64,000 bases of DNA from a virus (IMGVR_UViG_3300035208_004923:128001-192000), one strand, 5' to 3'; positions 28,837 through 55,696 are shown, counted from the stretch's first letter. Notes: generated by a model from the sequence alone, not told the origin. Made by a program: numbers and translations.

Positions 28837-29199
28837 TTAGTTATTATATTTTGCATTTACTTTTTTCAAATGTTCGTCCCGCATTGTAATCATATTGCTG
28901 TCCAGCGTAAATAATTTTTCCCATGCGTCTGATAGTTTTTCTCCAAGTTTGTTCATTTCATGGTCAGTAGAAGGATCGTTACCATCTGTTAAAAAAATTG
29001 CAGCAAGTTCTTTATTTGTATCGCTATTTGCCGCAAGCGCTGTTACTCTTCCCCATTGTTCTATTTCAAAAATACCGATATGATTATAATATTTTGATTT
29101 TCGAAAATCTTTCAAGATTTCTTTAATTGGTCGTACAGTTTTTATTTTGTTCGATGATTCATTTATAAAGTCATCTAGACTAGGTATTCTTTTTTCCAT
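28837..29199 (-). CDS. tagged putative internal head protein
   Basis: N-terminus MEKRIPSLDDFINE. Confidence 0.55.
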   Translation of the reverse strand: MEKRIPSLDDFINESSNKIKTVRPIKEILKDFRKSKYYNHIGIFEIEQWGRVTALAANSDTNKELAAIFLTDGNDPSTDHEMNKLGEKLSDAWEKLFTLDSNMITMRDEHLKKVNAKYNN

Positions 29200-29208
29200 T
29201 TAAGTATT

Positions 29209-30030
29209 TTATTTTATAGAGTACAATGTAAATCTAAATCTACCAGTTTGTTTTTGAAACGCGCGTACTGGTACTTCAGCACCTCGTCTACTTGAATATG
29301 CAACAAAATCTTTATACGTTGCAGGTATAAGAGCAACTATTTCAACTTCGTTAGTAATTAATTTATGCGTTTGGTCATCTACTATTTTGAATTTATCACC
29401 GACTTTAAATCCTTCTGCAGACCATAACATCATTGACCCACCGTTTGTTGCGCCAAGTACACCATTTGGATAGTCATATATTGACCAACCGTGGCCCGTC
29501 TTTCCAGTTGCTGGTGCAATTTCGCCGGCTTTTATCACGTATAGCGTTTGAAGTCCTTCTTTATCTTTAACAAATTTAGAAATTTGTTCTTCGTATGTTT
29601 TGAATAAGAAATTCAGTAATTCAATAAAACCTGCAACTTTATCATCAGCTTCTATGCAATACTGAAGTTGTTGTGATTTCTTAATATTAAAATACAATGT
29701 ATTCATATTTACAGAAGCAGACATATCAAATTTATTATCGTATGTTGAAATAGTAACTCTGGCGTCATGTGAGCCATTCACATTTAAAACTAGTTCTGCG
29801 TTATTTGTATTTGTGTTTTCGATAAATGTAAAAAATCTTGATACGTCACCCCAATATTCCATATCTTTGAACGTAAAATTTGCATCCTTTATTTTATACG
29901 ACCATGATTTTAATGCCTTCACGCTATTTGCATTTGCATTATACTGCTTAATGTTAGCAGGCGATAAATCTTTCTTTTCATTTATTGATTCAAATAAGAA
30001 TTCATCAAAATTAGGTATTCTGTTTTTCAT
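29209..30030 (-). CDS. tagged putative internal head protein
   Basis: N-terminus MKNRIPNFDEFLFESINE. Confidence 0.55.
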   Translation of the reverse strand: MKNRIPNFDEFLFESINEKKDLSPANIKQYNANANSVKALKSWSYKIKDANFTFKDMEYWGDVSRFFTFIENTNTNNAELVLNVNGSHDARVTISTYDNKFDMSASVNMNTLYFNIKKSQQLQYCIEADDKVAGFIELLNFLFKTYEEQISKFVKDKEGLQTLYVIKAGEIAPATGKTGHGWSIYDYPNGVLGATNGGSMMLWSAEGFKVGDKFKIVDDQTHKLITNEVEIVALIPATYKDFVAYSSRRGAEVPVRAFQKQTGRFRFTLYSIK

Positions 30031-30039
30031 TTTTGCCTT

Positions 30040-30474
30040 TTATTTTAAAAGTTTGTTTTTGTTTATTTTGTATCTTCCATCTTCGCCGTAAAAGAGCGCA
30101 GACACTAACACAAGAGGTGTTGATTCACCCCATTGCTCAAGAACATTTATAAATTCGTCAGGCTTCATGTTCATTGTATTACTACCTTCAGAAATACGTG
30201 CAAAATCATTTGCACTTGTACTTGGTACAGGCGCACCAATTCTAAAGTATGTTTCTAATTTAAACGTTCTGTTATCAGATGTTGTAATTTCCAAATTGTA
30301 CTCCTCTTCCGTATATACGCCGTTAACAGCAGTAACTGTTATCGCAGGTTTTATTTGAAATTTGTCTGCTGCTTTTGTAAATGAACCTGCCCACTTTAAA
30401 TTGTCAGGATCTTCTAATGAATATTTTGCCTCGTTAATCAAAAAATCATTTAATGATGGTATTCTTTGTATCAT
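30040..30474 (-). CDS. tagged putative internal head protein
   Basis: N-terminus MIQRIPSLNDFLINE. Confidence 0.55.
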   Translation of the reverse strand: MIQRIPSLNDFLINEAKYSLEDPDNLKWAGSFTKAADKFQIKPAITVTAVNGVYTEEEYNLEITTSDNRTFKLETYFRIGAPVPSTSANDFARISEGSNTMNMKPDEFINVLEQWGESTPLVLVSALFYGEDGRYKINKNKLLK

Positions 30475-30488
30475 GTTTACTTTATTTT

Positions 30489-31217
30489 TTATAAGTTTCT
30501 TGCGTTTCCGATAGCATCACCATATGCTTTTGTCATCGGTAATAATTTTTCAATAGGTAAGTCGATTTGTAATGCACCTACTATCATATTAGGGTCGATA
30601 ATACATGCACCTAAAAATCTATGGTGACCGTCGATGATATAATTATCGCTACTTGTTATGAAAAATGTTTTCTTGTAGAATTCTGCAGATTTGTCGGCGC
30701 CAAATTTTGCAATTCCTTCAATAGATTTATCGAAGTAAATTTGCTGTTGTATTGGTTTAAGATCACCAACTTTAACTTTTTTCATTTGAACTTTAATTTT
30801 GTCATCGCTTGCAGATCCATCATTCAAACCATTTTTAAGCCATTCATCTGCCATTTTACCTTGCAACCCTTCTGGAAATGCATCTTCTGCTGATGCGTTA
30901 TTTCCACGGAATGGTGCGTGAACGTCAACAAATCCTTTAGATAATCTGTATTGTAACATCTTAACATCTGCGTCAGTAATAACTGGCATATCTTTTCTTT
31001 GAGTAAAACCAAGTTTTGCTAAATCTTGAGCGTATTTATAATTTTTATCAAAATCTGGAATTTCTTTATATGGATCCCATCCAATTGAATTTGCATATGC
31101 TAATGCAGATTTAAGTGTGGTGTGTACAAGTTCAAGTTTTCCAGCTTCTTGACCACCAGCTTCAAACATTTGTTGTTCAAAAATGTATTCATCTAATGTT
31201 GGTATTCTTTGCGCCAT
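30489..31217 (-). CDS. ParB/sulfiredoxin-like domain protein with N-terminal tag
   Basis: LKPIQQQI...IIDGHHRF; N-terminus MAQRIPTLDEYIFE. Confidence 0.7.
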   Translation of the reverse strand: MAQRIPTLDEYIFEQQMFEAGGQEAGKLELVHTTLKSALAYANSIGWDPYKEIPDFDKNYKYAQDLAKLGFTQRKDMPVITDADVKMLQYRLSKGFVDVHAPFRGNNASAEDAFPEGLQGKMADEWLKNGLNDGSASDDKIKVQMKKVKVGDLKPIQQQIYFDKSIEGIAKFGADKSAEFYKKTFFITSSDNYIIDGHHRFLGACIIDPNMIVGALQIDLPIEKLLPMTKAYGDAIGNARNL

Positions 31218-31232
31218 TGTTGTGTTATTATT

Positions 31233-33648: not shown

Positions 33649-34740
33649 TTATTTAGTTTCTAAGTATAAAATGTAATTATTGAATTCATATAAGAATTTT
33701 GCAATATCTTCAATTGTTAAAGTTCCGATGTTAGAAATTCTAAATGTATTTGTATTCGATACTTTTCCTGGATATATTGTAATGCCTCTTTCCTTTAAAA
33801 AGTCATGCATATCATCAAATGAATATTTTGGATGTTCCAAATCAAAAAAACTTGTTATGATAACAGACGAATGCTCTTCTGGCGTATATTGTTTAACGCC
33901 AGCAACTTTCATGCCGTTAATCAACAACGTTCTATTATTTTTATAACGATTATGTCTACCGCCAACAGTTTCACTTGTTAATTCCTTTATTGCTTGATAA
34001 AAAGCATATATTGTTTGAACAGGTGGTGTAAATCTTAATTGCAAATTTTTCTGCATGTAATCCCATTGGTCGTATACATCAAAATAACAAGTTCTTGCTT
34101 GACCTTTTAGTTCCATTAATTTTTCTCGTCTAGCAATTATAAATCCAATGCCTGCAAATCCTTGTATGCATTTATTTGAACTTCCTATTAAAAAATCAAC
34201 ATTACTTTTTGTCATTTCTATTTCATATGCACCAACAGTACTCATTGCATCAATAATAAATGTCTTGTTATTTTCTTTACATAAATTTCCTATAAAGTCA
34301 ATATCATTTAGTATTCCTGTTGTCGTTTCGCAATGAACTGTATACACATGTGTTATATCCGGATTCGTTTCAATTAATTTAGATATCATTTCATAATTTA
34401 AAACTTTATCGCCACAGTCAATTTCAAACAAACGTATAGCGTATCTTTTTGCAATTTCTGCTGCTCGTCTACCGTATGCACCGTTTGTAATAACTAGTAG
34501 AAATGAATCTTTCGGCAAAGATGATATCATCGCTTCTATTGCACCGGTACCTGATGAACCAAATAAAATTGATTCATATCGTAAATGGTCAGTTGCAACA
34601 AATGTTGGCAAATGTACCATTATTGCATTCATGATACCACCAAATTCACGTTCTCGTGGACAAATATCGTCAACAATTTGTGCTTGCTTTACGCTTTCTG
34701 ACGTATTTGCAGGCCCAGGATTTAAAAGAATTTGTTTCAT
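33649..34740 (-). CDS. aepZ: 2-aminoethylphosphonate transaminase (AepZ/PhnW family, PLP)
   Basis: LLNPGP, SGTGAIE, NGAYG, HCETTTG, DAMS, SSNKC (PLP Lys), RFTPP, IYPGK. Confidence 0.92.
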   Translation of the reverse strand: MKQILLNPGPANTSESVKQAQIVDDICPREREFGGIMNAIMVHLPTFVATDHLRYESILFGSSGTGAIEAMISSLPKDSFLLVITNGAYGRRAAEIAKRYAIRLFEIDCGDKVLNYEMISKLIETNPDITHVYTVHCETTTGILNDIDFIGNLCKENNKTFIIDAMSTVGAYEIEMTKSNVDFLIGSSNKCIQGFAGIGFIIARREKLMELKGQARTCYFDVYDQWDYMQKNLQLRFTPPVQTIYAFYQAIKELTSETVGGRHNRYKNNRTLLINGMKVAGVKQYTPEEHSSVIITSFFDLEHPKYSFDDMHDFLKERGITIYPGKVSNTNTFRISNIGTLTIEDIAKFLYEFNNYILYLETK

Positions 34741-35462
34741 TATAAGATATTGTATAAAAGTGGGAATACTCTATTAACTGCTTTATAGTAATGAATAAGA
34801 TCATCGATTTCACACCATACATAATCAGTTTTCTCTAAATTGAATTGTACGCCATATTTTTTAGTTGCTTTAACTAAAACATGTTCATATTCAATTCTTG
34901 GATTATTTTTTAAGATATCTTCAGCGAATGGTAACAATACATTATTAACAGTATTTGCTGAAATGTGAGAAATTCCTAAAAATGAATGCTCGTGATTTTC
35001 CAAATCAGATGTTAATTTCGATACATTACTCATGCAATTGTTGAAAGATTCAACATAAACTTCATCATGATCTTTTGTTATGAATGATGTTACAATAATG
35101 TCTTTGTCGTTACCTATATGGTCAAGAATCTTTGCATCATATAAAATATCACTTTCAACAATCGTACATGCACCTTTCACTTCTTTCAAACCTACATACA
35201 AAGAATATCCGCTTCCACTGTCAACGTAATTGCCATTATGAATTGTTGACACTTCTTTATATCCTTTGGCAAATTTTTCGTAGTATTCAGATTTATGTCC
35301 TGTTACAATTAATATCTTTTCATAACCTTTTTTCAATAAATTTTCAACGGACATTTCAATCAATGATTTTCCGCAGATTCTTAAAAAGCCTTTTGGCATA
35401 GTTTCAGTTAGTAAACCGACCCTGCTTCCAAGACCTGCTGCTAGTATGATTGCTGTTTTCAT
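34740..35462 (-). CDS. phosphonate/phosphocholine cytidylyltransferase (PntC/LicC-like)
   Basis: ILAAGLGSR, MPK, GSGYSL, ESDILY, WCEIDD; located in AEP cluster. Confidence 0.85.
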   Translation of the reverse strand: MKTAIILAAGLGSRVGLLTETMPKGFLRICGKSLIEMSVENLLKKGYEKILIVTGHKSEYYEKFAKGYKEVSTIHNGNYVDSGSGYSLYVGLKEVKGACTIVESDILYDAKILDHIGNDKDIIVTSFITKDHDEVYVESFNNCMSNVSKLTSDLENHEHSFLGISHISANTVNNVLLPFAEDILKNNPRIEYEHVLVKATKKYGVQFNLEKTDYVWCEIDDLIHYYKAVNRVFPLLYNIL

Positions 35463-35467
35463 TATTT

Positions 35468-36601
35468 TTATTTTTTTAAAAATTTCATTAATCGTTTCTT
35501 AACTTGTACTGGTGTAACTGCTGGTCGACCTAAAGGATCTTTTGAACCAGGAACTGTTGGCACAACAATTAGCTTCAATGTTCTTTCTTTATCTTTTTTC
35601 CAATTAGTTAATGCATTTTCTAATTGGCCGTATGATCTAACAATAGCATTTTGGTAATTCATAGAAGACGCTAGTTTATTCCATGATACGTTATTCGATA
35701 ATGTAGCTTGTCCGCCTGTTGTGTCGTGAACATTATTATCAAGTAATATATGTAGCATGTTTGATGGCGCATATTCTGCAATCAATGGAAGAACACTTAA
35801 ACGCATTAATGCAGCACCGTCTCCATCAATGACATATACTTTTTTATCTGTATTCAACGCAACACCTAAGCCAATTGCACCAGCGCAACCCATCGAACCG
35901 ACCATATACAAGTTATTTTTCTTATCTTTTATATCATACAATTCTCTGCCTGTCATTCCTGTTGTTGCGATATAAACAGCATCTTTGTCAATTGTTGAAA
36001 TTGATTTAAGTACCTCATATCGAGTCATGTCCATAACTTCTTGATTCAATGTATTTGCAAAGCCAATTGGCGCAACATCTTTTAATGTTTTTTGCTTTGG
36101 AATTAACTTAACAGAATTAAAAGTATCTTTTTCAACAAGAATAAAATATGGCATATTAGTTTTTGCCATTATTGCTTTTGCTTCTGCTATCTGTTGTTTT
36201 GCAATTTCATCATCTTTCGATAAAACAACGGATTTCATTTTCATTGTTTTTATCAATTTTGCAGTAATCACGCCCATTAATTCATGTTGAGGTTCAGTGT
36301 CAGAACCGGTTCGCATACTAACAAAAACCAATGATGGAATTTTGAATATGTAATTTAATGAAGTAAGTGGGGAAACTGCATTTCCGAATCCGGAATTTTG
36401 CATCATGACAACTGTATTTCGACCTGCTATGTGTGCGCCTGCAGCTATTGCAATTGCATCACCTTCATTTGCTGCATTGTAATATTCACAATCATTTTGC
36501 GCATAATTAATTAAACTTTTCATCCAAGAGCAAGGAACTCCTGTAAAAAAATCAAATCCTTCTTGTTTTAAAAAATCTCCAAATTTTTGTGTGTCTACCA
36601 T
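35468..36601 (-). CDS. ppd: phosphonopyruvate decarboxylase
   Basis: GVPCS, ANEGDA, MQNSGFGNAVSPL, EPQHELMG, GSMG, DGDGA...NN (TPP binding), TGGQ. Confidence 0.93.
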   Translation of the reverse strand: MVDTQKFGDFLKQEGFDFFTGVPCSWMKSLINYAQNDCEYYNAANEGDAIAIAAGAHIAGRNTVVMMQNSGFGNAVSPLTSLNYIFKIPSLVFVSMRTGSDTEPQHELMGVITAKLIKTMKMKSVVLSKDDEIAKQQIAEAKAIMAKTNMPYFILVEKDTFNSVKLIPKQKTLKDVAPIGFANTLNQEVMDMTRYEVLKSISTIDKDAVYIATTGMTGRELYDIKDKKNNLYMVGSMGCAGAIGLGVALNTDKKVYVIDGDGAALMRLSVLPLIAEYAPSNMLHILLDNNVHDTTGGQATLSNNVSWNKLASSMNYQNAIVRSYGQLENALTNWKKDKERTLKLIVVPTVPGSKDPLGRPAVTPVQVKKRLMKFLKK

Positions 36602-36615
36602 ATTATGTATTTTAA

Positions 36616-37911
36616 TTATTTTGTTCCTGGTATTAATTCAAGTATATCATTTATACTCATGCATAATGTTTTATCAACATTTTCTGATTTGCCGTCTAAA
36701 AGAATTCCTTTTGCTGTTTTTAGCATTGCTGGATATGCAGAACGTAATAAATGATTTGCATAAATCACTATATTAGCACCAGCTTTTTCAAATTCATCAA
36801 TATGAATTTTATTGAAACTAGAAGGAACTACAACGATAGGTGTTTGTTTATCGAATTCTCTAAATCTTTTAATAAATTCAAATATTTCTACACCGTCTTT
36901 ATTTCTTGAATGTATCATGATAGCATCAGCACCTGCGTTAACATAAGCAAACGAACGTTCTAGTGCATCTTCTAATCCTTTTTCTAAAATTAAACTTTCG
37001 CATCTAGCAATGATCATAAAGTTTTTTGTTATCTGCGCAGCTTTACCCATTTTTATTTTATGACAGAAGTCACAAATACAATCCTGCGACTGGTCAACAT
37101 CATTTCCAAATAATGAATTTTTCTTCAAACCAGTTTTATCTTCAATTATTGCAGCAGATACGCCAACACGTTCTAAACTTCGAACTGTAAATTGAAAATG
37201 TTCAGGTTTACCGCCTGTATCGGCATCATATATCATCGGTTTTGTTGTTACCTCAAATATTTCATTTATTGTTGTAAGACGAGCAGTTGTATCAACAGCT
37301 TCAATATCAGGTTTGCCTTTCGATGTAGAATCGGTCAAAGAACTTGACCACATGCCATCAAACTGCGTGTTATCAATTTTTGTGTGTTCGACAATTAATC
37401 CGCTTAAAGCATTATGAACTTCAAGTATTCTTAGAATTTTCTTTTCACGCAATAATCTTCGCAATGAATTACTTCTAACTGTTGATGTTATACCTAATGC
37501 AGTTACTTGTTCTTTTATATTGATACTGTTGATTTCTTTTGAATATTCTGGCTCAATTAATTCGCCATGAATTTCTAATATGTAATCTAATACTTCATCT
37601 CTATATTTCTTCAGGTGATTTGTTTTCCAATCAGTTCCATGAACAACTATAGTAGCACCAATTTTTTTTAAATTTGGTAGGCATGATGCAGATTCTTGTG
37701 GAATAATTTCAGACACGCACCCAATTGCGGCAATTGCAATTCTTCTATTTTCATATGATAAATAAGGAACGTCGTTTATTTCCCTACATGCATCTTCAGT
37801 TAGTAATCCTACAATTACTTTGCCATGTTTACTTGCTTCTGTTAAAATTGATACATGACCTGCGTGTATCAAATCAGCAATCATGCTAACATAAACTATT
37901 GTTTCATTCAT
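36616..37911 (-). CDS. pepM: phosphoenolpyruvate mutase with N-terminal cytidylyltransferase domain
   Basis: Diagnostic EDKTGLKKNS (EDKxxxxxNS), DADTG, IARCES; N-terminal DLIHAGH. Confidence 0.95.
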   Translation of the reverse strand: MNETIVYVSMIADLIHAGHVSILTEASKHGKVIVGLLTEDACREINDVPYLSYENRRIAIAAIGCVSEIIPQESASCLPNLKKIGATIVVHGTDWKTNHLKKYRDEVLDYILEIHGELIEPEYSKEINSINIKEQVTALGITSTVRSNSLRRLLREKKILRILEVHNALSGLIVEHTKIDNTQFDGMWSSSLTDSTSKGKPDIEAVDTTARLTTINEIFEVTTKPMIYDADTGGKPEHFQFTVRSLERVGVSAAIIEDKTGLKKNSLFGNDVDQSQDCICDFCHKIKMGKAAQITKNFMIIARCESLILEKGLEDALERSFAYVNAGADAIMIHSRNKDGVEIFEFIKRFREFDKQTPIVVVPSSFNKIHIDEFEKAGANIVIYANHLLRSAYPAMLKTAKGILLDGKSENVDKTLCMSINDILELIPGTK

Positions 37912-37934: not shown

Positions 37935-37981
37935 AAAAATTAGCATAATTTTTTAGATTATGCTAATTTTATTATATATTC
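37935..37981 (-). promoter_or_regulatory. hairpin plus class 3 motif GAATATATAA upstream of the phosphonate operon
   Basis: AAAATTAGCATAAT/ATTATGCTAATTTT inverted repeat; motif at 37972-37981. Confidence 0.5.
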
Positions 37982-40007: not shown

Positions 40008-41399
40008 TTATATTTTTTCTAACTCAGCTTTCAATTTCTTAAGTTCCTGTATTTCATTTTGAACAGCAAACATTTGTTTCTTTGCGGATTTTCTTTGTCC
40101 ATAAAAATCAGTTAAAATTGTTCTAAATACAGAATCTTCGGCATCATTAAAATACGCGCCAGATGCAGTGTATGTAATGTTTTCAATATCTGGTTTCTTT
40201 GCTTCTTTACCCATGAATGCTTCAGGTGACATATTCCATTGTCGCATAATAGATGGGTACAGTGATGCAAAGTCAAAAGAAGCAACCCAATCGTATATTC
40301 CTTTTACGGGTGGAAATACAAAGGCACCTTCGTAACCTGTTTTATTTACGTTTCGGTTTTTGATTGTTGGGAATATTCGATTTCTGCCGTAGAATTCACG
40401 AGTCATCACAGATTCAGCCATTGCGATTGGTGAGAATGCTCTATTTGCTTCAACCTTTGTAATGTTACCCAATTTTAAATATGTTGACATTGTTGATAAC
40501 TTTGCATCAATCAATTTTACAAGAATTGAATCGACGCCATTATAGTAAACATATTGTTCAAAATCAGATTCATATAAATCCTGAAGTGTTCCGTTGTACG
40601 GAATTTTACCCATACCCAATGCTGCAGTTGCAACATATTGTAGCGTATTGTTATCTTTGAAGATTACTCTATCCCATTTTTTATAAAGTTCCATGTAATC
40701 GACAACAACTCTGTGCATCGGTAATTCTTCACGACCTACAAGTTTGCCATTTACTGCTGCAACAGATGGGTCAATTGATAAATTACGACAACGATTTACA
40801 AGATACGCCCAGTCAAAGTTTATAAAGTTCCATCCGGTAATCAATGGCATTTTTTGTATTGCCTTATTGAAAAATGAATATAACAAATCATATTCTGTTT
40901 TGAAATAAACATATGAAAACTTAATTTCTGGATAATTATGATCTGTTAAGTACTTGTTTATTTTGATTTCGATATTTCTTATCTGAACGGGAAGCAATGG
41001 TTTTGTTCCTAATACAGCAAGCATATTATCGTGCGCAAATGATATTGCGGTTACCTTATGTCTTGCAACAGATGGTTTTGGCCATTCATCATCAACTTCA
41101 GTTTCAATATCCACAAAGAATTTCTTTGGGTCATTTTTTGAATAAATCTTTTCTTTAATGTAATCTGGCTGTTTCATGAGAATTTCCTCAATTCTCCATT
41201 TGTTCAAAAAGAAAGCTTTTTTCTTTTGAACTAATTTGCCATCCCAACTTTTGAATGAAGGTTCCGCTTTTCCTACGGTATATGGAACCCATTCAAAAAA
41301 ATCCTCTTGTTCTATAGGAATTATTTGGAAAGCAACATCTCCATTTTCATCGAAGTAAGATACCTTAAGGTTTTTCTCTACTTGTTCGACGTTAATCAT
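40008..41399 (-). CDS. family B DNA polymerase, N-terminal subunit (3'-5' exonuclease + motif A)
   Basis: DIET (ExoI), GWN...FD..YL (ExoII), YNGVD (ExoIII), YEGAFV, SFDFASLYPSIM, RKSAK. Confidence 0.92.
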   Translation of the reverse strand: MINVEQVEKNLKVSYFDENGDVAFQIIPIEQEDFFEWVPYTVGKAEPSFKSWDGKLVQKKKAFFLNKWRIEEILMKQPDYIKEKIYSKNDPKKFFVDIETEVDDEWPKPSVARHKVTAISFAHDNMLAVLGTKPLLPVQIRNIEIKINKYLTDHNYPEIKFSYVYFKTEYDLLYSFFNKAIQKMPLITGWNFINFDWAYLVNRCRNLSIDPSVAAVNGKLVGREELPMHRVVVDYMELYKKWDRVIFKDNNTLQYVATAALGMGKIPYNGTLQDLYESDFEQYVYYNGVDSILVKLIDAKLSTMSTYLKLGNITKVEANRAFSPIAMAESVMTREFYGRNRIFPTIKNRNVNKTGYEGAFVFPPVKGIYDWVASFDFASLYPSIMRQWNMSPEAFMGKEAKKPDIENITYTASGAYFNDAEDSVFRTILTDFYGQRKSAKKQMFAVQNEIQELKKLKAELEKI

Positions 41400-43267: not shown

Positions 43268-43371
43268 ACAGCTGTTTGTTTTAACGTATCAATAAAGTTA
43301 ATTACCTTAATAGGTTATTCAATTGTATTATATATTCAGAACTATTAAATAGTTTCAGATTTCTTATCTTT

Positions 43372-44117: not shown

Positions 44118-46511
44118 TTACGATTCTTGTAAACTATTTTTGATGAAATCATCTAAAGTATATAAACGTTTCATATTGAAACGACTAGCACCAGATCTGT
44201 TTAAACCTGCGTTTGCTGGTAATTGGTCGTCATCAAATTTATCACCTGAACCTGTTAAACCTGGGCCTGGTAAATATACATTGCCCATTCCTGGTACATT
44301 CGACACAGTTGATGCATCAGTTTCATTTATTTTTGTTTCGATTTTAATAGTAGATACGCCAGTTTCAAATTCAACCAAATATGCGCCTTCAGATACCGAT
44401 AAAATAGTTCCTATTCCATTAGGAAATTTGTATTTTTCGCCAAGTTCCATAATGTCTGACATCTCAGCAACAGATTCATTTGATTTATCACCGTCACCTT
44501 TTTCTCCTTCTTTCTCAACAGATAATAATTCGATATATGATTTAAGGTCGTCAAAACTGATTTCCCATTCTTTTGATAATCTTGTTATTTCTTCATCACC
44601 AATGGTAACAGCTCCAGCATCAGCAATTAATTGTTTTAATTCTGCTTTTTGTTCGTCAGTTAATAACTTTTTATCATCGTCTTCCTTAGGTTCTTCCTTA
44701 GGTTCTTCCTTAGGTTCTTCCTTAGGTTCTTCCTTAGGTTCTTCCTTAGGTTCTTCCTTAGGTTCTTCCTTAGGTTCTTCCTTAGGTTCTTCAACTTTTG
44801 GTGCGTCAGCAGTTGGCGTTGGTTTAACTTCTTCATCTTTAACTGTTGATTCTGCTGGTTTTGCAGGTTCTTCAACAGGTTTTGCAGGTTCAGCTGCAGG
44901 TTTAGCTTTAGGTTCAACACCTAACAATTCTTTTGCAAGTTTTATTGCATCTTCTTCATCAGATAAACCGTCAGCAACTAATTTTGAATAATATTTAGGA
45001 TCTTCCCATAAATGATCTCGTGCAATTTCTGCAGCTTTCTTAATGTCATCAGTATGTTCGATTTCAACTTTTTTACCTACTTCTAATTCTTTGAATATGC
45101 CATCTTCTGAAACGCTATGTTTGTTTGCAATATCGGCAATTGATTTTCTATCAGATACACCGCCTGGGATTTGGTCAGGTTCACCTGTTTTTGGTTTTGC
45201 AACATCTGCATTGGCAGGATCTGTATCATCAACTTTAACATCAGGTGCTTTAGTCCCAGTGTCATCAGTATTTATTGGTTCTACAGATTTATCAGCTTTA
45301 GTTTCGTCATCAGTTTTAGGAACAGTTTTGTCGTCAGCATCAGGCGCAGGTGCTTTATCAGCATCAGTTCCTTCAACATCGGTATTTGTATCGACCGGTT
45401 TTTCAGCGGCAGGTTCACCATCTACAGGTTTTTCTGTTGACGTATCACCTGTATTATCAGTAGCAGTTTGGTCAGAACCAGCAGGATCTAAACCAGGCAC
45501 TTTAATATCTGATGTTGTTTCTCCATCTGTACCAGCAGCAGGTTGTTCAGCTGTTGTATCAATTGATGTAGGTTCAGATTCAGCAGCTGCTTTGAAAAAT
45601 TCAGCACCCCAGTTATCAGGTTTAGCTTTTGTATAAAATTCTGAATCTCGTTTTAAATTTCCAATAACAATTCTTAATGTTTGAATAGGGTCGTTGCCAG
45701 TAACATCGGCATCTTCGCCTGCAGCAGAACCATTTGCAAGTAATACAACTTCCATACCAATTTTTAATTGGTCCATGTTATATGCAGCAACATCAATTCC
45801 TTGTTGTTTTGCAATTGCTTTAATTAACGAATCTGAATAATCTTCTAATAAAATTTCTTCTAATGAAACATTTTCATTAATTGTTGTTCTGTTTAATACG
45901 CGTACCCCAAAAGCAGATAATTCAAAGAATTTTTGTTTTGTTTCTTTGTCTTCTGTTACTTTGAATAAATGCGCGTTTTGTCGAACCCAAGCAAAAGTTG
46001 TTTTTCTGCCAGATTCTTCATTCATTTGTTTTATATATGCTATAAAAGCAGATCTTTCAATTTTACCAGATTCTGCGATATGCGCTAATACTTTATTTCT
46101 AACAGGTGTTGCAATTTGTGCAGTTTTTGCAGGATGCAAGTCTGTGTATTTTCTTTTTACTGTTGCTAATGCACCTTCTCCAATAATGTCGATATATACA
46201 TCCTCTGTTGCTGAAGATTCTGCAAGAACTTTATTACCAAGTTCATTTAAAGATACAAAGTAATTTTGTCCATTTTTTGTACGTTGGAAATATTTGCTAT
46301 TTTCGTAAACCCAACCCAATGGAGTATTCGTTGTTGTTTCGCTCAAGCCATTAATGAATATTGATAATGTACTTTCAGCAATACTTCCGCATTTTTTTAC
46401 GTATGCAAGAATTGCGTTGGCATTCGATGTAATCAATTCCGATGGTCGAGTAAATTCTTTTCTCTCTACGTCAACTGATTCATTTAAACGTGATGTCTTT
46501 TTAAAGTTCAT
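44118..46511 (-). CDS. large acidic modular protein with DUF5661-like domains and EEPK repeat
   Basis: ELEVGKKVEIEHTDD...IARDHL.EDPKYYSKL plus a degenerate second copy; low-complexity linker. Confidence 0.65.
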   Translation of the reverse strand: MNFKKTSRLNESVDVERKEFTRPSELITSNANAILAYVKKCGSIAESTLSIFINGLSETTTNTPLGWVYENSKYFQRTKNGQNYFVSLNELGNKVLAESSATEDVYIDIIGEGALATVKRKYTDLHPAKTAQIATPVRNKVLAHIAESGKIERSAFIAYIKQMNEESGRKTTFAWVRQNAHLFKVTEDKETKQKFFELSAFGVRVLNRTTINENVSLEEILLEDYSDSLIKAIAKQQGIDVAAYNMDQLKIGMEVVLLANGSAAGEDADVTGNDPIQTLRIVIGNLKRDSEFYTKAKPDNWGAEFFKAAAESEPTSIDTTAEQPAAGTDGETTSDIKVPGLDPAGSDQTATDNTGDTSTEKPVDGEPAAEKPVDTNTDVEGTDADKAPAPDADDKTVPKTDDETKADKSVEPINTDDTGTKAPDVKVDDTDPANADVAKPKTGEPDQIPGGVSDRKSIADIANKHSVSEDGIFKELEVGKKVEIEHTDDIKKAAEIARDHLWEDPKYYSKLVADGLSDEEDAIKLAKELLGVEPKAKPAAEPAKPVEEPAKPAESTVKDEEVKPTPTADAPKVEEPKEEPKEEPKEEPKEEPKEEPKEEPKEEPKEEPKEDDDKKLLTDEQKAELKQLIADAGAVTIGDEEITRLSKEWEISFDDLKSYIELLSVEKEGEKGDGDKSNESVAEMSDIMELGEKYKFPNGIGTILSVSEGAYLVEFETGVSTIKIETKINETDASTVSNVPGMGNVYLPGPGLTGSGDKFDDDQLPANAGLNRSGASRFNMKRLYTLDDFIKNSLQES
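44681..44792. repeat. 12 bp tandem repeat (CTTCCTTAGGTT) x9, encoding (EEPK)9
   Basis: Nine perfect copies plus 4 nt, counted directly. Confidence 0.95.
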
Positions 46512-46547
46512 GTGTATAATCTTATTTTTGTATTTATTTATATATTC

Positions 46548-47668: not shown

Positions 47669-47688
47669 AAATATATAATTATATATTC
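47669..47688. promoter_or_regulatory. palindromic pair of class 3 motifs between divergent genes
   Basis: AATATATAA|TTATATATT perfect palindrome, one motif per strand. Confidence 0.55.
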
Positions 47689-50482: not shown

Positions 50483-51286
50483 TTAGTAACGGCCGTATGC
50501 AGATTGATTTTCAAAAGAACCTGCTATGAATTCTTTGCCATCAACTTTAACAGTAACAACCGATGACCATCTTTGTGTATCTATTTGAACAAAACCGATA
50601 GAGTTATGAATAGTGTCACTACTAATGCTTGTGTTATTTTTATCAATTTCAATTTTTGATGTAGGTGTAACTTTTACTTTATTTTTCTTAAGTCCGTCTA
50701 GCGTCATTGTTAATACTTTAGTAAAATCTGAACCAGCATAGGCAGAATAACTTGTCTTTCTTGCTACAGCTACTGCTACATTTAATAACGATGCAGCTGC
50801 ATCAGATGTCCATGATTTTAATACATTTATAATATTTGTTAATGCATCTCTCATTGCAGGTAAATCTTTATTTGCTGCTTTAAATTCAGGTTCTATTCTT
50901 TTTATTGCATCTGACAAAGGACCTTGCGATCTTCCGCCTGGCGCAGCATCAGTGTATAAAAATGCAACAAATTCAATAATAGGTGCAGATGCAACACCTG
51001 TTTTTAAATATGTAGTTGCAGATTTAATAACTTCTTTAAATTTTTCAACTGGTGCTTCATCTCCAAAGTATGTATATCGCAATCCTGCTGTTGGCCATCC
51101 TGCTTCATAATGAAACAATGAACATACTGTTCTTATTTCACCTTTTAAATAAGTTTTAAATGTAGTTGTTTTTTCAAGACCGTGACGAGTTGCAAACTCA
51201 AGTCCTGATTCCTCAATTGCTTCATTAATTGCATTCGATTTTTCTATGAATATAAATTCATTCAATGATGGTATTCTATTTTTCAT
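50483..51286 (-). CDS. tagged putative internal head protein
   Basis: N-terminus MKNRIPSLNEFIFIE...INE. Confidence 0.55.
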   Translation of the reverse strand: MKNRIPSLNEFIFIEKSNAINEAIEESGLEFATRHGLEKTTTFKTYLKGEIRTVCSLFHYEAGWPTAGLRYTYFGDEAPVEKFKEVIKSATTYLKTGVASAPIIEFVAFLYTDAAPGGRSQGPLSDAIKRIEPEFKAANKDLPAMRDALTNIINVLKSWTSDAAASLLNVAVAVARKTSYSAYAGSDFTKVLTMTLDGLKKNKVKVTPTSKIEIDKNNTSISSDTIHNSIGFVQIDTQRWSSVVTVKVDGKEFIAGSFENQSAYGRY

Positions 51287-51306
51287 AATATGTTTTTATT
51301 TATTTT

Positions 51307-52467
51307 TTACTTGATTATGTTATGAGGATAATTAAATTCTCTATTTTGGAACTTTAATATTTTTTCGTTACGAATATTGCCACTGCAAATATCTATTGCG
51401 TTCATTATCGTACAATCATTTGACCATGATTCTTCGCCAATCATTAGCGTTTCTATGTATGGAATTAAACTTAAAGAAATTTCTCGTGTTGCTGAATTCC
51501 ATAAATAAGATGGCGAATGGTCAACTGAATAGTATGTTATATTTTTTCCTACTTTAAATGTAGGATCATCGAATGATGTTGGTTTTGCAAAATAAAATCC
51601 CATGTTCTCATCACAACTTATATCAATTATTGATGTAAATTGTTTTAGAGAATTTGCTTGTTTTATATTAGATATAAACATCATTGGGTTGGTGACATCT
51701 TGCAATACGCCATTAACTATGATATCACTACTTCGAAGTTCTTCGATAAGATGTGATATTTTTCCTTCTGTTGAAATAACTGAAAGGTAATCAGTTTCAG
51801 GAAAGTTAATCATTTGGTTATAATATACGTCTGGGTTTTTATCTGCTATTAAATGAACAGGGCGTTTTGTGAATACATGAATGTTATTAAATCCCCGTCC
51901 TTGTAATGCATAAATTGCACCTTTACTGACAGAGCCGTATCCTAAAATAGATACTTTTTTTCTAGGTCCGTACATTCCGTCTAAACCTTGTAATCCTAAA
52001 TAATGAATAACACCTGCATATCCTGCAAGTTCATTGTTTCGATAAAATATGTGCAATGATTTTTCTCCATTATTCCATGTATGCATTTCTTCCCATGCAA
52101 TTAAAGTCAATTTTTTTGCAATTGCAATCTCAGCGATTTCAAATTGTTGAATTGCATGAGACCAACCGCAAAGAATTTGGCCGTCTTTCATTTGTTTTAA
52201 ATCGTCAATTACAGGTTTTGGCAATATGATCATATCACACATTTCAAATAAAGAATCACGAGATACAATATTGTAACCTGCTTTTATAAAATCTTCATCA
52301 GGAATTCCGAAATTTGTTCCGTAATTTTCTTCTAGATAAATTGAAGATATTAAATTATAACTTATCAATGATAATAAGTGTTGCGGATGAATCGGCAATC
52401 GTTTTTCGTTTTCCTTTTTAGATGTTTTAAAAAGGCCAGTCTTTAAATATTTATTTGCCGTATTCAT
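51307..52467 (-). CDS. N5-(carboxyethyl)ornithine synthase-like / AlaDh-PNT family NAD(P)H oxidoreductase
   Basis: SKKENEKRLPIHP, NNELAGYAGV, GYGSVSKG, IIDISCD, YSVDHSPS. Confidence 0.8.
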   Translation of the reverse strand: MNTANKYLKTGLFKTSKKENEKRLPIHPQHLLSLISYNLISSIYLEENYGTNFGIPDEDFIKAGYNIVSRDSLFEMCDMIILPKPVIDDLKQMKDGQILCGWSHAIQQFEIAEIAIAKKLTLIAWEEMHTWNNGEKSLHIFYRNNELAGYAGVIHYLGLQGLDGMYGPRKKVSILGYGSVSKGAIYALQGRGFNNIHVFTKRPVHLIADKNPDVYYNQMINFPETDYLSVISTEGKISHLIEELRSSDIIVNGVLQDVTNPMMFISNIKQANSLKQFTSIIDISCDENMGFYFAKPTSFDDPTFKVGKNITYYSVDHSPSYLWNSATREISLSLIPYIETLMIGEESWSNDCTIMNAIDICSGNIRNEKILKFQNREFNYPHNIIK

Positions 52468-53554
52468 CTATGATTGGATATTTTGCTAATATTCCTTCAT
52501 AATCCATTGGCCATTTTGAAGATAATATTTCTTCTTTGTATTCAGGCCAATAAATTGAATGACCTTGTGACATATATTTTCTCCAAAGTTCTTCTTTGAA
52601 CGAATCTGGCAATTCTCTTCGGTAAAAATCTTTATAAACTTCCATGTATACTTCACAAAGTTTTACACTTCCTAATCCTGTTGCACTATTCGTTTCAAGT
52701 ACCCATATTTTACCTTGTTTATCAACAACCACATCCAAAGACCAAAGGCCAAGTTCAATTTCTTTTCGTACTTCACCAGATATTCGATAAATCTCATTCA
52801 TGAAATCATCAGGAATTTTATTCATATCTTGATATGCATATATGAATTTTACCTTTTCATCAACTTTTTTTGTTCGTATTGATTGGTCTTCTTTTATTGT
52901 TGGTACACGTTCATTTATAATAAAACATTTATCATTTAAAAATACGCATCGGTATTCTCTATCAAAATCAATGAATTGAGAATATAAATCAAATGATTTT
53001 TCTTCTCCTCTTAATTCAAATGTTTCAGGCTCTTTTTTAAGATCTGCTGCTGTATCAATTTTTTTTATGCCTAATCCCGAATGTCCTTTTGCTATTTTTG
53101 CGATAACAGGAAATCCCACAGCACCTTCGATTGCTTCTTCTCGTTTAAAAACTGTTTTTGGAAGCCAATCGCAATTTGCAAATATTTTCGAGAATTGTAC
53201 TTTATCGCCTGATTTTAACATTGGTTCAGGAAGATTATACATTCTTTTTGGATTTACATTAAATTTATTAATAAATTGTAAAGATTCCTTTGAATTACCG
53301 CCATAATAAATAACTGGCAGATTTCTAGGTATAATGATATCATCACGTTTTACATCTGTTGCTGTGTAATATGATATGTACAATTGGTCAATTGCTGCTT
53401 TATTGATTGCTGCTTCTCTTTCTGATGTATCTCCTGATAATGCTGCAAGATCTGCTCCTTGTCTGATGAAAATAATTTTCTTGTCGAATTGGTCACTTAA
53501 ACCTAATGTAATGAATTCTTCAAGCGTTTTTAGTTTGCCTAATTGTATTGCCAT
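52451..53554 (-). CDS. RimK-like ATP-grasp ligase
   Basis: DK..F, LPKT, FPVIAK..GHSGLG, QFID..REYR, LD...VLETNS; tag-like KLKTLEEFI. Confidence 0.8.
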   Translation of the reverse strand: MAIQLGKLKTLEEFITLGLSDQFDKKIIFIRQGADLAALSGDTSEREAAINKAAIDQLYISYYTATDVKRDDIIIPRNLPVIYYGGNSKESLQFINKFNVNPKRMYNLPEPMLKSGDKVQFSKIFANCDWLPKTVFKREEAIEGAVGFPVIAKIAKGHSGLGIKKIDTAADLKKEPETFELRGEEKSFDLYSQFIDFDREYRCVFLNDKCFIINERVPTIKEDQSIRTKKVDEKVKFIYAYQDMNKIPDDFMNEIYRISGEVRKEIELGLWSLDVVVDKQGKIWVLETNSATGLGSVKLCEVYMEVYKDFYRRELPDSFKEELWRKYMSQGHSIYWPEYKEEILSSKWPMDYEGILAKYPIIDEYGK

Positions 53555-53600
53555 GCTGCTTTTTTGATTATTTTATTATATATTCAGAATAATAAAATGA

Positions 53601-53630: not shown

Positions 53631-53647
53631 AATATGTTTAATGCTAA

Positions 53648-53908
53648 TTATTTATTTAGCATACCGATGATTGCTCCATAGTCTAAACCATCGTCTGATT
53701 TTTTCTTTAACAAACCTGTGATAACTTCATCAGCTTTTGCTTGGTCATATGAATCGCCATGCATTTTTTTCAATTTTTCTTCAGCCCAAGATTTGAATTC
53801 TTCATCAGAATTAATAGTGCCTTCTAAAATTGCTTGTTCTTCAGCTAATTTATCTGCTTGTAATTGTTCATTTACGAACTCGTCGATTGATAAGATTCTT
53901 CTTTTCAT
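53648..53908 (-). CDS. tagged small putative head protein (paralog of the C-terminus of 53926..54576)
   Basis: MKRRILSIDEFVNE; shared EEFKSWAEEKLKKMHGD domain. Confidence 0.6.
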   Translation of the reverse strand: MKRRILSIDEFVNEQLQADKLAEEQAILEGTINSDEEFKSWAEEKLKKMHGDSYDQAKADEVITGLLKKKSDDGLDYGAIIGMLNK

Positions 53909-53925
53909 TGTATGATATTTATTTT

Positions 53926-54576
53926 TTATTTATTTAACATTCCAATGATTGAACCGTAGTCTAAATCATCGTCTGATTTTTTCTTTAATAATCCAGTGAT
54001 AGTTTCGTCAGCTTTTGCTTGGTCGTATTTATCACCGTGCATTTTTTTCAATTTTTCTTCAGCCCAAGATTTGAATTCTTCGTCTGTTTTTATATCAGCT
54101 TCAAGAATTGCTGATTCTCTTAAAGATAATGGACCTTTATATTTTTTGATTTGTTTATCTAACTCATCAAGTTCTTTTTGTAAATCTGCTGGTGTTTTTT
54201 GTTTTAATGCTTCTTCTTCAAGAGCTTTTTGCATTGCTTGTAATTTATCAGCAGTTTCTTTTTTCTTTGCAATTGCTGCTAAATATTTATTATCATCAAT
54301 AGTTTCATCTTCCTCATCAATAGTATTAGCTGCATTTTTTGGTCCAACACCTTTAACCCAGCCTTCTTTAATTTTTGCAAAAAATTCACTGCGTTTTGTG
54401 TGATGCAATTGAGACATATGCGAAACACCAAAAGAATCTAAAGTTGAATGCCAATGTTTTTTGTATTGGTCCTTTAGACTTTCTGCTTCTTCTAAAAGTT
54501 CCAATTCAGAAACTTCAGATTCAAACATTTTTTCTTTTTGAACGTATTCGTCAATAGATAATATTTTTCTTTTCAT
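53926..54576 (-). CDS. tagged putative head protein
   Basis: MKRKILSIDEYVQKE; C-terminal domain duplicated in the downstream gene. Confidence 0.6.
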   Translation of the reverse strand: MKRKILSIDEYVQKEKMFESEVSELELLEEAESLKDQYKKHWHSTLDSFGVSHMSQLHHTKRSEFFAKIKEGWVKGVGPKNAANTIDEEDETIDDNKYLAAIAKKKETADKLQAMQKALEEEALKQKTPADLQKELDELDKQIKKYKGPLSLRESAILEADIKTDEEFKSWAEEKLKKMHGDKYDQAKADETITGLLKKKSDDDLDYGSIIGMLNK

Positions 54577-54607
54577 ATTATATAAATTTTTATTATATAT
54601 TCACGAA

Positions 54608-54796
54608 TTATTTGCAAATTTGTGATAATGTCGCAACGTATTCGTTAACAGACATATTTACACGTTTTGCTTCGTCAGTTAATACAGATAGCGTTTTTAA
54701 CATGCTTTCTTTTACATCGTTATTGTATTTTTCAAGTATAAAGAATTGTTGATTATCTTCTCTTACTTTTTCAACTACTGCTGATATTTTTTTCAT
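54608..54796 (-). CDS. hypothetical protein
   Basis: 62 aa ORF filling a gap. Confidence 0.5.
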   Translation of the reverse strand: MKKISAVVEKVREDNQQFFILEKYNNDVKESMLKTLSVLTDEAKRVNMSVNEYVATLSQICK

Positions 54797-54817
54797 TGCT
54801 GTTTATTTTATTTTAAT

Positions 54818-55696
54818 TTAATTTTCTCCTGAAGTGTCAGCTACTATTACAGTTTGCCATTTATCTAAACCGAATAAATCTTTAACTTTAAACGTTAAAT
54901 CTTTATCACCTAATTTAACTGCTGTTGTTAAATCTTTTGTTGTAAATGCAATAACTTCTGTATCGCCATTTTTTGGGTGAACATAATATGTAATACCTTT
55001 AAAAATAACTTCATATACATTTTTTTCAATCATATCACCTAATGCAGGTTTGACATCTTCGCCTTCGTTAATTAGTGTATGTTTTGTTATTTTTGTTTCT
55101 TCTTCAACTTTAGGTTTTTCGTTTTTCTTAACAACGTCTGTCATTTTAAAATCGTCAAGTATTTCTAACATGATATGTTTTTCATTAGATATTTTTCCGC
55201 CTCTTACAAGATCCATGAATTTTCTCCATCGTTTCTTAAAATCAGCCAATACTTCTGTATCATCAATTCGATTGCAAACTTCTTTATAAACTTTTGTTAA
55301 TTTATCTTCTTCATCAACATGTTTAGTGTCAATTTTTCTTACAGCATAATCATCAACTACGCCATAAACAAAAACAAATTTTTTCTCTTTGCTTTCTTTA
55401 GCCCAAACAATTACAAAAGTTACATCTTTATCATCTTTGTACTTTTTGATTTGTTCCCAATCGTCAACAGTATCAGCAACAGAAAAATCTTTTGTTACTT
55501 CGCATACTTCGTAACGATTACCATATCTATCCTCTACGATATTGCCTTTTTTCAATTCAGGAAGATTTGTTTTTGGTTTTATTACTTCCTCTTCCTCTAT
55601 ATGCGTGGGTTTTGTTTGCTCTCCTGTTGGCGATTCATTATCAGCCTTCATTTTAGCAACAAATTCATCTATAGAAAGAATTCTTTTGTTATTCAT
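54818..55696 (-). CDS. tagged putative head protein
   Basis: MNNKRILSIDEFV; class 3 motif upstream. Confidence 0.55.
   Translation of the reverse strand: MNNKRILSIDEFVAKMKADNESPTGEQTKPTHIEEEEVIKPKTNLPELKKGNIVEDRYGNRYEVCEVTKDFSVADTVDDWEQIKKYKDDKDVTFVIVWAKESKEKKFVFVYGVVDDYAVRKIDTKHVDEEDKLTKVYKEVCNRIDDTEVLADFKKRWRKFMDLVRGGKISNEKHIMLEILDDFKMTDVVKKNEKPKVEEETKITKHTLINEGEDVKPALGDMIEKNVYEVIFKGITYYVHPKNGDTEVIAFTTKDLTTAVKLGDKDLTFKVKDLFGLDKWQTVIVADTSGEN

Follow-up and report, generated by a model that had tools for sequence, protein, structure and literature searches.

A 64,000-nucleotide (nt) stretch of viral DNA (IMGVR_UViG_3300035208_004923; hereafter the window, positions 128001-192000 of contig C1) encodes a series of proteins that begin with one and the same short leader, M-x-x-R-I-P-[TS]-[LFI]-[DEN]-[DE]-[FY]-[ILV]-x-E, and continue into unrelated bodies. 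The contig is the complete genome of an uncultured T4-like megaphage, in which more than 60 open reading frames (ORFs) carry this 14-residue N-terminus. Our analysis indicates that the shared leader is likely an expanded form of the capsid-targeting sequence (CTS) of phage T4, serving for capsid loading and processing, and that the phage, as judged from its genes, probably packs an exceptionally large set of finished proteins along with its DNA.

The leader forms a sharply delimited class of N-terminus. A 16-residue position-specific scoring matrix (PSSM) applied to all 18,790 ATG starts of the contig gave a bimodal distribution, with 64 starts at 16-54 bits and the next best at 4 bits. A regular expression returned 62 ORFs, open for 70-387 amino acids (aa), and all 62 matches begin at the initiator Met. 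At the DNA level, a degenerate pattern for RIP[ST]L[DN][DE][FY] has 26 matches in the genome and the reversed pattern none. A core-only PSSM, used to pick up offset variants, adds the ORFs starting at 50410 and 53554 in the window, and the genome-wide number of tag carriers comes to 62 to ~68 ORFs. No leader was found in the ORFs of the other 77 contigs assigned to the same bin.

Within the window there are 11 canonical leaders (ORF starts 29199, 30030, 30474, 31217, 43746, 48445, 51286, 53908, 54576, 55696 and 44116), among which 54576, 55696 and 44116 show small offsets or substitutions, and three variant or degenerate ones (50410, 53554 and 31979; Table 1). An earlier, sequence-only reading of the window had listed 15 such N-termini. 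All of them are present where it placed them, on the minus strand, and 14 stand as leaders; the remaining one, MGVETLSDYL at 47645, was rejected because its core PSSM score falls under the threshold. The estimate of about 15 tagged proteins therefore suits the window and understates the scale, which exceeds 60 genome-wide. That reading had also described the bodies as unrelated, which is nearly exact: all-against-all BLASTP of the bodies, from residue 19 onward, gives 61 components from 62 proteins, and within the window only the ORFs starting at 53908 and 54576 share a body. Over 63 aa, the 86-aa product of this pair (53648-53908) matches a portion of the adjoining 216-aa product (53926-54576) at 86% identity; by sequence, the two are a local partial duplication that kept the leader on both copies. 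Its statement that replication genes lack the tag is borne out for the primase, the gp32-like, gp46/47-like and UvsW-like proteins, the family-B DNA polymerase (PolB), the ribonucleotide reductase (RNR) and the dUTPase, and the leader is likewise absent from the portal, the gp2-like, gp4-like and gp55-like proteins and the products of a phosphonate operon.

The tagged proteins have a median length of 146 aa. Together, the 62 sum to 10,336 residues, or ~1.15 MDa at one copy each, so that tens of copies of each would still be small beside the mass of 421 kb of DNA. Searches of 65 tagged ORFs against Pfam and PHROGs place only ~8 in any family: an M16 peptidase, a 2H/Acb1-like phosphoesterase, UPF0227, ATP-grasp, a cytidylyltransferase and, weakly, LicD and ParB-like proteins.

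Sequence information along the leader is high at M1, R4, I5, P6, [LFI]8, D9, E10, [FYH]11 and E14, and drops past the glutamate, from 2.7 bits at position 14 to 1.15 at position 15 and <0.7 thereafter. Across the 62 leaders, position 8 is Leu (35), Phe (19) or Ile (8), position 11 is Phe (45), Tyr (10) or His (7), position 12 is mostly Ile (35), Leu (9) or Val (9), and position 14 is Glu in 50. The His-for-aromatic form (LDEHINE) is a sub-dialect restricted to two clusters, at C1 341214-343000 and 408335-411608, with 7 ORFs in total. An [ILVM]xE motif ends at residues 13-17 in 55 of the 62 leaders, and the following residue (P1') is small in 45 of these 55 (Ser 26, Ala 8, Asn 6, Gly 5). A second [ILV]NE lies within residues 15-34 of 17/62 tagged proteins versus 17/643 untagged ones (odds ratio 13.9, p 1e-10); deeper in the tagged bodies the motif occurs at its background frequency of 1.34 per 1000 residues. 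Redundant cleavage sites in propeptides are known from phiKZ-like phages (PMC9026906, PMC5694885). Some window leaders have one extra residue between the aromatic position and [IL]-N-E (FLINE, FSLNE, FIFIE), so that the two halves of the leader behave as separable modules. In an AlphaFold2 model of the 242-aa protein (predicted local distance difference test, pLDDT, 86.5), the leader is a separate helix at residues 8-19, modelled at lower confidence and connected through a Gly-rich linker to the folded body.

This anatomy closely resembles that of the T4 CTS. The T4 internal proteins IPII and IPIII begin MKTYQEFIAE↓A and IPI begins MKTFKEFT...ITE↓A (NC_000866; here and throughout, the arrow marks a cleavage point, which is a predicted one in the leader sequences), and gp21, the protease of the prohead, cuts the CTS off all three (Mullaney and Black 1996, reviewed in PMC9026906 and PMC9958956). 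In the T4 CTS, targeting depends on residues 4 and 7 and processing on residues 8 and 10; a Glu10->Asp change stops processing, not targeting (PMC9026906). Alignment on the E-F-I-x-E core equates L8, F11, I12 and E14 of the leader with T4 CTS positions 4, 7, 8 and 10, the leader reading T-[LFI]-D-E-[FY]-[ILV]-x-E↓S with the same spacing. Both are N-terminal peptides that follow straight after the Met on otherwise unrelated proteins; both place Glu at i+6 from a hydrophobic or aromatic position i, with further residues of this kind at i+3 and i+4 (Y4, F7, I8 and E10 in T4); both end in an [I/L]-x-E↓small-residue site, and both genomes encode a gp21-family protease and a gp23-family capsid protein. 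On this alignment, the leader is a T4 CTS lengthened by four N-terminal residues, with an invariant Arg and a near-invariant Ile-Pro added. It differs in being 14 residues long instead of 10, with a conserved R-I-P that has no T4 counterpart, and in having more than 60 carriers, enzymes among them, whereas T4 has three (plus Alt, with a different propeptide). In addition, the predicted cleavage sites here are often doubled, and the protease appears fused to the scaffold.

The predicted protease is encoded outside the window, by a 683-aa ORF at C1 280540-282591 (L022:10540-12591) that matches Peptidase_S77 (PF03420, E 4.7e-12) and PDB entry 5JBL. Its GELDHPE and ISSRA motifs align to the catalytic His85 and Ser140 of T4 gp21, and LLTE↓K aligns to the gp21 self-cleavage site LIE-9 (PMC9958956). 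The C-terminal ~450 residues form a repeat-rich helical extension built of I-A-E-D-H-N units, each with a protease-type site, and site density in the ORF as a whole reaches 8.8 [ILV]NE per 1000 residues versus a background of 1.34, and 51 [ILVM]xE versus 18. The fusion is kept in 27 related loci (26 from IMG/VR and LR756500), directly upstream of the capsid gene and with units of the form Y-S-E-Y-L-A-E-N-L-D, and the extension looks like the scaffold of this phage. T4 maturation also removes the first 65 residues of gp23 and the first 10 of gp24 (PMC9958956). In a MAFFT alignment, ALNE↓SS of the major capsid protein (MCP; Glu43 counted from the ATG) falls together with FLTE↓AE of T4 gp23 (the E65 site) and LLRE↓S of gp24, so that the MCP carries, at the gp23-homologous position and as a predicted cut, the same L/I-N-E↓S that ends the leaders. 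The sequence-only reading had proposed a T4-type CTS ending in a gp21 site, and the leader alignment, the S77 protease, the MCP LNE↓S and the CTS found on homologous cargo, described next, agree with it in silico.

Homologues of four window cargo families carry a short T4-type CTS, which indicates that the leader is exchangeable on homologous cargo. The ParB-like family (~238 aa; window 30489..31217), for which the top Foldseek matches of the 242-aa member are the ParB N-domain and sulfiredoxin, both weak (E 0.07), has 668 homologues at E <=1e-3, and its conservation starts exactly at E↓AGGQ. Upstream of this point most members have short near-T4 leaders, for example MKSFKEYLNE, MKTFKEYITE and MKTYNQFINE; the long R-[IVFL]-P-T-L-D-E form is confined to the four closest homologues, with P0005 carrying a shorter R-L-P-T-L-D-E variant. 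A T4-spaced core is present in the first 24 residues of 80/119 ParB-like homologues and at an internal control position in 0/119; further controls gave 34/1164 for bacterial N-termini and 0-1% at internal positions. In the 267-aa family (50483..51286), 6 of 9 homologues bear a T4-like leader. These leaders are lineage-specific (they include MKNIPTFENFINE-↓S, MKKLHTFEEFVNE-↓S and MTKIFESFRDFSFE-↓K), and a second [IL]-x-E↓A site is kept 8 residues on, right before the conserved body. The 652-aa nucleotidyltransferase has a homologue in another phage (L087:2542-6237, 39-41% identity) that starts MSELAKFLVE↓S, with L4, F7, L8 and E10, and in the ATP-grasp family (52451..53554) 50/75 homologues open with a T4-spaced leader, MKYVKLFEEFIYE-↓E and MKHVHTFESFINE-↓A being examples. 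More broadly, short CTS-like leaders start 117/1310 ORFs in 64 IMG/VR loci around the ParB-like gene versus 11/1164 ORFs of bacterial contigs; these loci are T4-like by their neighbours, and several of the ORFs with CTS-like leaders in them are adjacent to one another and have unrelated bodies.

Searching IMG/VR with an exact degenerate DNA pattern of the canonical leader gave no match, and relatives with other dialects were found through the capsid protein. In the nearest, a 218-kb IMG/VR contig with an MCP 66% identical, at least 20 ORFs are tagged, and their dialect reads MKQRI-[SLQG]-x-[LF]-E-x-[FY]-I-x-E. In relatives further removed, leaders such as MLNRIKKLNEFPLLE-↓G and MKHIKLFESFINE-↓A occur on a few of the genes that lie downstream of the capsid gene. 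The nearest relative shares 88 of its 297 ORFs with the phage overall, yet it has homologues of just 5 of the 62 cargo bodies; the cargo set thus behaves as a fast-turning accessory compartment, like the internal-protein loci of T-even phages. In 42 related loci (41 from IMG/VR and LR756500), genes lying up to 10 kb from the capsid gene gave no BLASTP match to the window proteins, so the window cargo is not part of a conserved head module. As a separate observation, four ORFs of the Prevotella phage Lak-A1 (MK250016.1; L074) start MNK-x-IK-x-L-x-E-[SN]-LF, with none in the reversed control; these may be a Lak dialect of the shared leader or a paralogous family.

Tagged genes also stand out by their position behind a promoter-like element. 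The decamer [GT]AATATATAA is found 64 times on the contig; in nearly all cases a start codon lies 20-35 nt downstream of it, and it is usually followed by an A/T-rich ATAAA. Many copies include the T4 late consensus TATAAATA. Behind this box stand the protease-capsid operon, the terminase gene, tail-fibre-like and homing-endonuclease genes and ~12 tag clusters, and it is probably a late promoter read by the gp55-like sigma factor (minus-strand copies of the window are listed in Table 1). Tagged genes lie a median of 1.4 kb downstream of a same-strand box versus 8.4 kb for untagged genes (p 1e-17), and 90% of tagged versus 35% of untagged genes are within 5 kb of one. Outside the window, nine tagged genes directly follow the MCP gene and one precedes the protease gene. 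The start codons are preceded by A-rich leaders and not by a Shine-Dalgarno sequence, a pattern consistent with a host of the Bacteroidota type.

If the leader works as in T4, the tagged genes would be transcribed late, with the head genes, from T4-late-like boxes read by the gp55-like sigma factor. Residues 7-14 would form an amphipathic helix, whose face of L8, F11 and I12 would dock the protein on the scaffolding core during prohead assembly; in this phage the scaffold would be the long repeat-rich extension of the protease. Once the shell is complete, the gp21-family serine protease would cut after Glu14, at the end of an [ILV]-x-E that is followed by S, A, N or G, and in many proteins once more a few residues further on. 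The predicted sites suggest that it would also cut the MCP at ALNE↓SS and shred its own scaffold part. By analogy with T4, the mature cargo would remain in the head with the DNA and enter the host at infection.

Among other explanations, the one that survives best accepts docking and cleavage and takes most tagged proteins to be parts of the core or scaffold that act during assembly and are then degraded or expelled, as T4 gp67, gp68 and gp22 are, rather than cargo that stays in the head for injection. It would suit the tagged genes that flank the head genes and the many small products of no known family, and several T4 core proteins are indeed degraded to peptides (PMC9958956). We nonetheless consider it unlikely. 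The [ILV]NE motif is enriched just behind the leader only, and at 1.34 per 1000 residues inside the bodies, compared with 8.8 in the scaffold ORF, the bodies do not look built for shredding. Moreover, several tagged proteins are folded enzymes or domains (the ParB-like protein with its pLDDT of 86.5, ATP-grasp, nucleotidyltransferase, M16 peptidase and Acb1-like 2H phosphoesterase), and turnover as fast as that seen in the nearest relative suits accessory cargo better.

Much less probable is a role mainly as a removable inhibitory propeptide, keeping harmful enzymes inactive until the head protease acts, with capsid targeting secondary or absent. A 14-residue helix on a flexible linker would be an unlikely inhibitor of 60 unrelated folds, even though most leaders end in a cleavage-type site, often doubled, and some of the cargo are hydrolases or nucleotide-handling enzymes. 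The conserved positions match T4 targeting positions 4 and 7, not those of processing alone (PMC9026906), and a subclade of the ATP-grasp family retains the targeting core without the cleavage Glu. We give as small a chance to the leader being an address to a destination other than the capsid, whether a phage-built compartment, a chaperone, a secretion route or a degradation signal. The C-terminal half of the leader matches both the T4 CTS and the cleavage site of the phage's own MCP, cargo homologues elsewhere bear near-T4 leaders such as MKTFKEYITE, and the tagged genes are grouped around head genes and behind late-type boxes. By direct reading, the leader is charged and amphipathic and is not a Sec, Tat or lipoprotein signal. 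What speaks for another address is the strong conservation of Arg4-Ile5-Pro6, which lacks a T4 equivalent, and the occurrence of the leader on metabolic enzymes.

Codon usage shows that selection is on the peptide and not on the DNA. All four Pro codons are used at position 6; position 7 is encoded by ACA, AGT, TCA and ACG, which span three codon families of Thr and Ser; Leu8 uses TTA, CTT, CTA and TTG, Ile12 is evenly split among ATA, ATT and ATC, and synonymous codons also vary freely at Asp9 and Phe11. A preference is seen only at Arg4 (AGA in 57/62) and Ile5 (ATA in 52/62), so some nucleotide-level preference near the start codon is possible. Synonymous-site identity is 0.69 between neighbouring leaders and 0.70 between distant ones; recent DNA copying therefore does not explain the conservation of the leader, and its spread by recent local copying was ruled out. 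Together with conservative replacements (L/F/I, F/Y, I/L/V) and the recurrence of the same peptide logic with other codons and residues in distant phages, these data largely refute the idea that the conserved 5' end is a DNA or RNA element without a peptide role, such as a translation-initiation enhancer or a gene-spreading recombination cassette, which we rate the least probable explanation of all.

Several observations weigh against a T4-type capsid-loading leader. Seven of the 62 leaders have no obvious cleavage site, and the ATP-grasp subclade that has lost the cleavage Glu is the one nearest this phage. The T4 CTS has no equivalent of the most conserved residues, Arg4 (4.9 bits) and Pro6 (4.3 bits), so part of the leader is left unexplained by the T4 model, and Pro6 is not conserved in the nearest relative. 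Some tagged enzymes look metabolic (ATP-grasp, nucleotidyltransferase, LicD-like), and they share an operon with an untagged alanine dehydrogenase (AlaDH)-like enzyme, which would be odd if joint action were needed in the capsid or after injection. For the cluster 31979-28837 the nearest late-type box is 6.8-8.8 kb upstream, which makes its late expression less certain. All relatives are uncultured, and a cargo of more than 60 protein species exceeds every tested case by far; perhaps not all of them are loaded. A bolder form of the proposal holds that about one-tenth of the genes of this 421-kb phage encode proteins that enter the capsid by means of a single portable leader and are freed by the head protease, an 'infection kit' an order of magnitude above any described, which would include folded enzymes such as the ParB-like, ATP-grasp and nucleotidyltransferase proteins, the M16 peptidase and the Acb1-like phosphodiesterase. 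To our minds, this stands evenly balanced between true and false.

Every gene in the interval 28837-55696 is on the minus strand. Of the leader, the ORF at 31979 keeps only MLNRIPT, with RLYE↓A further downstream, and its LicD match (E 7e-4) is weak and below the cut-off. The 273-aa cargo (29209..30030) is assigned no function, as its ESM Atlas scores are <0.9 and its model is poor. ATG 43746 sits 5 nt past the stop of the upstream ORF, and a longer TTG start at 43803 is probably not used; the ORF at 44116 is tightly coupled to the upstream 797-aa ORF. A cytidylyltransferase-like domain begins at residue 28 of the 652-aa ORF (CTP_transf_like 9.4e-6), and the 367-aa ORF (52451..53554), first gene of an operon behind a late-type box, matches Dala_Dala_lig_C (6e-6).

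Table 1 Leader-bearing and candidate ORFs, late-type boxes and the late sigma factor gene in the window (window coordinates)
Feature	Position	Strand	Leader or motif	Score	Remarks
Tagged ORF, 120 aa	28837..29199	-	MEKRIPSLDDFINE-↓SS	PSSM 48.4 bits	No Pfam family above cut-off
Tagged ORF, 273 aa	29209..30030	-	MKNRIPNFDEFLFE-↓SINE↓K	PSSM 37.0 bits	Two consecutive [ILV]xE sites
Tagged ORF, 144 aa	30040..30474	-	MIQRIPSLNDFLINE-↓A	PSSM 38.1 bits	1 residue inserted between targeting core and cleavage site
Tagged ORF, 242 aa	30489..31217	-	MAQRIPTLDEYIFE-↓QQMFE↓AGGQ		ParB/sulfiredoxin-like body (IIDGHHR)
ORF, 248 aa	31233..31979	-	MLNRIPTWVAF...RLYE↓A	PSSM 4.2 bits	Degenerate leader; doubtful member
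Tagged ORF, 124 aa	43372..43746	-	MKQRIPTLEEFSLNE-↓S	PSSM 45.2 bits	From ATG 43746
Variant-leader ORF, 120 aa	43754..44116	-	MQKRLLTLNEYIEQE-↓V	Full PSSM 3.5 bits	From ATG 44116; core kept
ORF, 365 aa	46548..47645	-	MGVETLSDYL...LLTE↓S		Leader not supported; late-type box upstream; no family found
Tagged ORF, 111 aa	48110..48445	-	MNRRIPSLDDYIKE-↓N	PSSM 43.6 bits	
Variant-leader ORF, 652 aa	48452..50410	-	MKIEISKLKTLEQFINE-↓T (TLEQFINE)	Core PSSM 19.7 bits	
Tagged ORF, 267 aa	50483..51286	-	MKNRIPSLNEFIFIE-↓KSNAINE↓A	PSSM 39.5 bits	
ATP-grasp enzyme, 367 aa	52451..53554	-	KLKTLEEFITL (leader core)	Core 11.0 bits	No cleavage-position Glu
Tagged ORF, 86 aa	53648..53908	-	MKRRILSIDEFVNE-↓Q	PSSM 32.7 bits	
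Tagged ORF, 216 aa	53926..54576	-	MKRKILSIDEYVQKE-↓K	PSSM 16.2 bits	Directly after late-type box
Tagged ORF, 292 aa	54818..55696	-	MNNKRILSIDEFVAKMKADNE-↓S	Core 11.4 bits	Leader offset by 1 residue
Late-type box	268..277	-			
Late-type box	10128..10137	-			
Late-type box	37972..37981	-	GAATATATAA		Heads phosphonate operon; nearest same-strand box upstream of cluster 31979-28837
Late-type box	43328..43337	-			
Late-type box	46538..46547	-	GAATATATAA		Heads 797-aa ORF, then tagged 44116 and 43746
Late-type box	47679..47688	-			
Late-type box	53576..53585	-	GAATATATAA		Heads operon ATP-grasp / AlaDH-like / 267-aa / 652-aa / 111-aa
Late-type box (T4-late-promoter-like)	54593..54602	-	GAATATATAA		26 nt upstream of ATG 54576; heads 54576/53908 pair
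gp55-like late sigma factor, 121 aa	5874..6239	-		E 2.2e-11	phrog_234

Other genes of the window add context. Behind a late-type box, window 44118-46511 encodes the 797-aa protein, which is acidic (isoelectric point 4.5), contains a DUF5661 segment and begins MNFKKTSRLNE↓S; with a protease-type site at residues 9-11 and no leader, it may be another processed head protein. A four-gene operon of the 2-aminoethylphosphonate type lies downstream of a late-type box at window 33649-37911 and comprises a phosphoenolpyruvate mutase fused to a cytidylyltransferase, a thiamine pyrophosphate-dependent decarboxylase, a nucleoside triphosphate transferase and a class-V aminotransferase; beyond it come DUF4326, a metallophosphoesterase and the LicD-like ORF whose leader is degenerate. 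The PolB ORF (window 40008-41399) is only 463 aa long, that is, the exonuclease domain and the first third of the polymerase domain, so the remaining part must be encoded elsewhere or the gene must be split; whole (818 aa) and split forms both occur in related loci.

The parent contig is 425,361 bp long with 31% G+C. Its first 4,593 nt recur at its end with 99.5% identity, which makes it a complete genome, circularly permuted or terminally redundant, with a unit of ~420,768 bp. A tandem array of a 15-nt repeat lies near the contig start (C1 338-635), within this terminal repeat. The contig shares a 'bacterial' bin of 78 contigs, the 77 others being bacterial, and the assembly appears to be a phage-bacterium chimera in which the phage contig was binned by composition. 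The phage has a Straboviridae-like core gene set, comprising the gp23-family capsid protein, Peptidase_S77 prohead protease, gp20-type portal, gp17-type large terminase and gp2-like and gp4-like proteins, and for replication and expression a gp55-like late sigma factor, primase, gp32-like and gp46/47-like proteins and a UvsW-like helicase; PolB, a class II RNR and a dUTPase are also encoded. Ranked by capsid-protein identity, the closest database records come from an uncultured 462-kb phage (47%) and the Lak megaphages of Prevotella (40%), followed by Tenacibaculum and Flavobacterium jumbo phages (~31-33%). A megablast search with 24 kb of the window found no match among cultured phages.

Encapsulins and bacterial microcompartments offer a parallel outside phages, in that short, portable, linker-separated peptides send unrelated proteins into a shell, which for encapsulins has the HK97 fold. 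Those peptides are usually C-terminal (in encapsulins), are not removed by a protease, bind the shell itself and have no role in delivery, unlike the leader described here. Among phages, phiKZ-like giants (phiKZ gp175, 201phi2-1, SPN3US gp245; PMC5694885, PMC7411985) cut many head-internal proteins after Glu with a gp21-related protease, with redundant propeptide sites and large virions holding tens of different internal proteins. However, their propeptides are mostly >100 residues long, with no shared short motif or recognisable common address tag, and they are cleaved at S/A/G-x-E or A-x-E instead of [ILV]-x-E. The Dar system of phage P1 (DarA, DarB, Hdf and others; PMC9024508, PMC12810830) likewise packages several unrelated proteins in a myovirus head and injects them against host defence, whereas loading there follows an ordered hierarchy of specific proteins, and the P1 literature cited here has no shared short leader. 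Protein delivery, which the sequence-only reading had raised as a use of the tag, and the loading of foreign proteins by CTS fusion are already practised with T4 (PMC9026906, PMC10229621).

A search of the available literature found no description of a leader repertoire this large or of the long R-I-P form, nor of CTS-bearing ATP-grasp, ParB-like or nucleotidyltransferase families. New here are four window cargo families (ParB-like, 267-aa, nucleotidyltransferase and ATP-grasp) with short-CTS homologues in other uncultured T4-like phages. If the expanded T4-type leader loads its carriers, capsid cargo can include sizeable enzymes, and the leader dialects, matched to different scaffolds, would form a natural series for studying CTS recognition.

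Proteins injected together with the DNA decide the first minutes of an infection, including evasion of restriction, of defences of the cyclic-oligonucleotide-based anti-phage signalling system (CBASS) type and of others, and they are known for few cultured phages. Leaders of the same spacing on many cargo families across uncultured T4-like phages would, if they act as proposed, provide a sequence-only handle on injected proteins in metagenomes, and many of the proteins so found would probably be anti-defence factors. Should the leader work like the T4 CTS, N-termini would predict which proteins an entire clade of uncultured giant phages injects, and the short form would do so for many ordinary T4-like phages.

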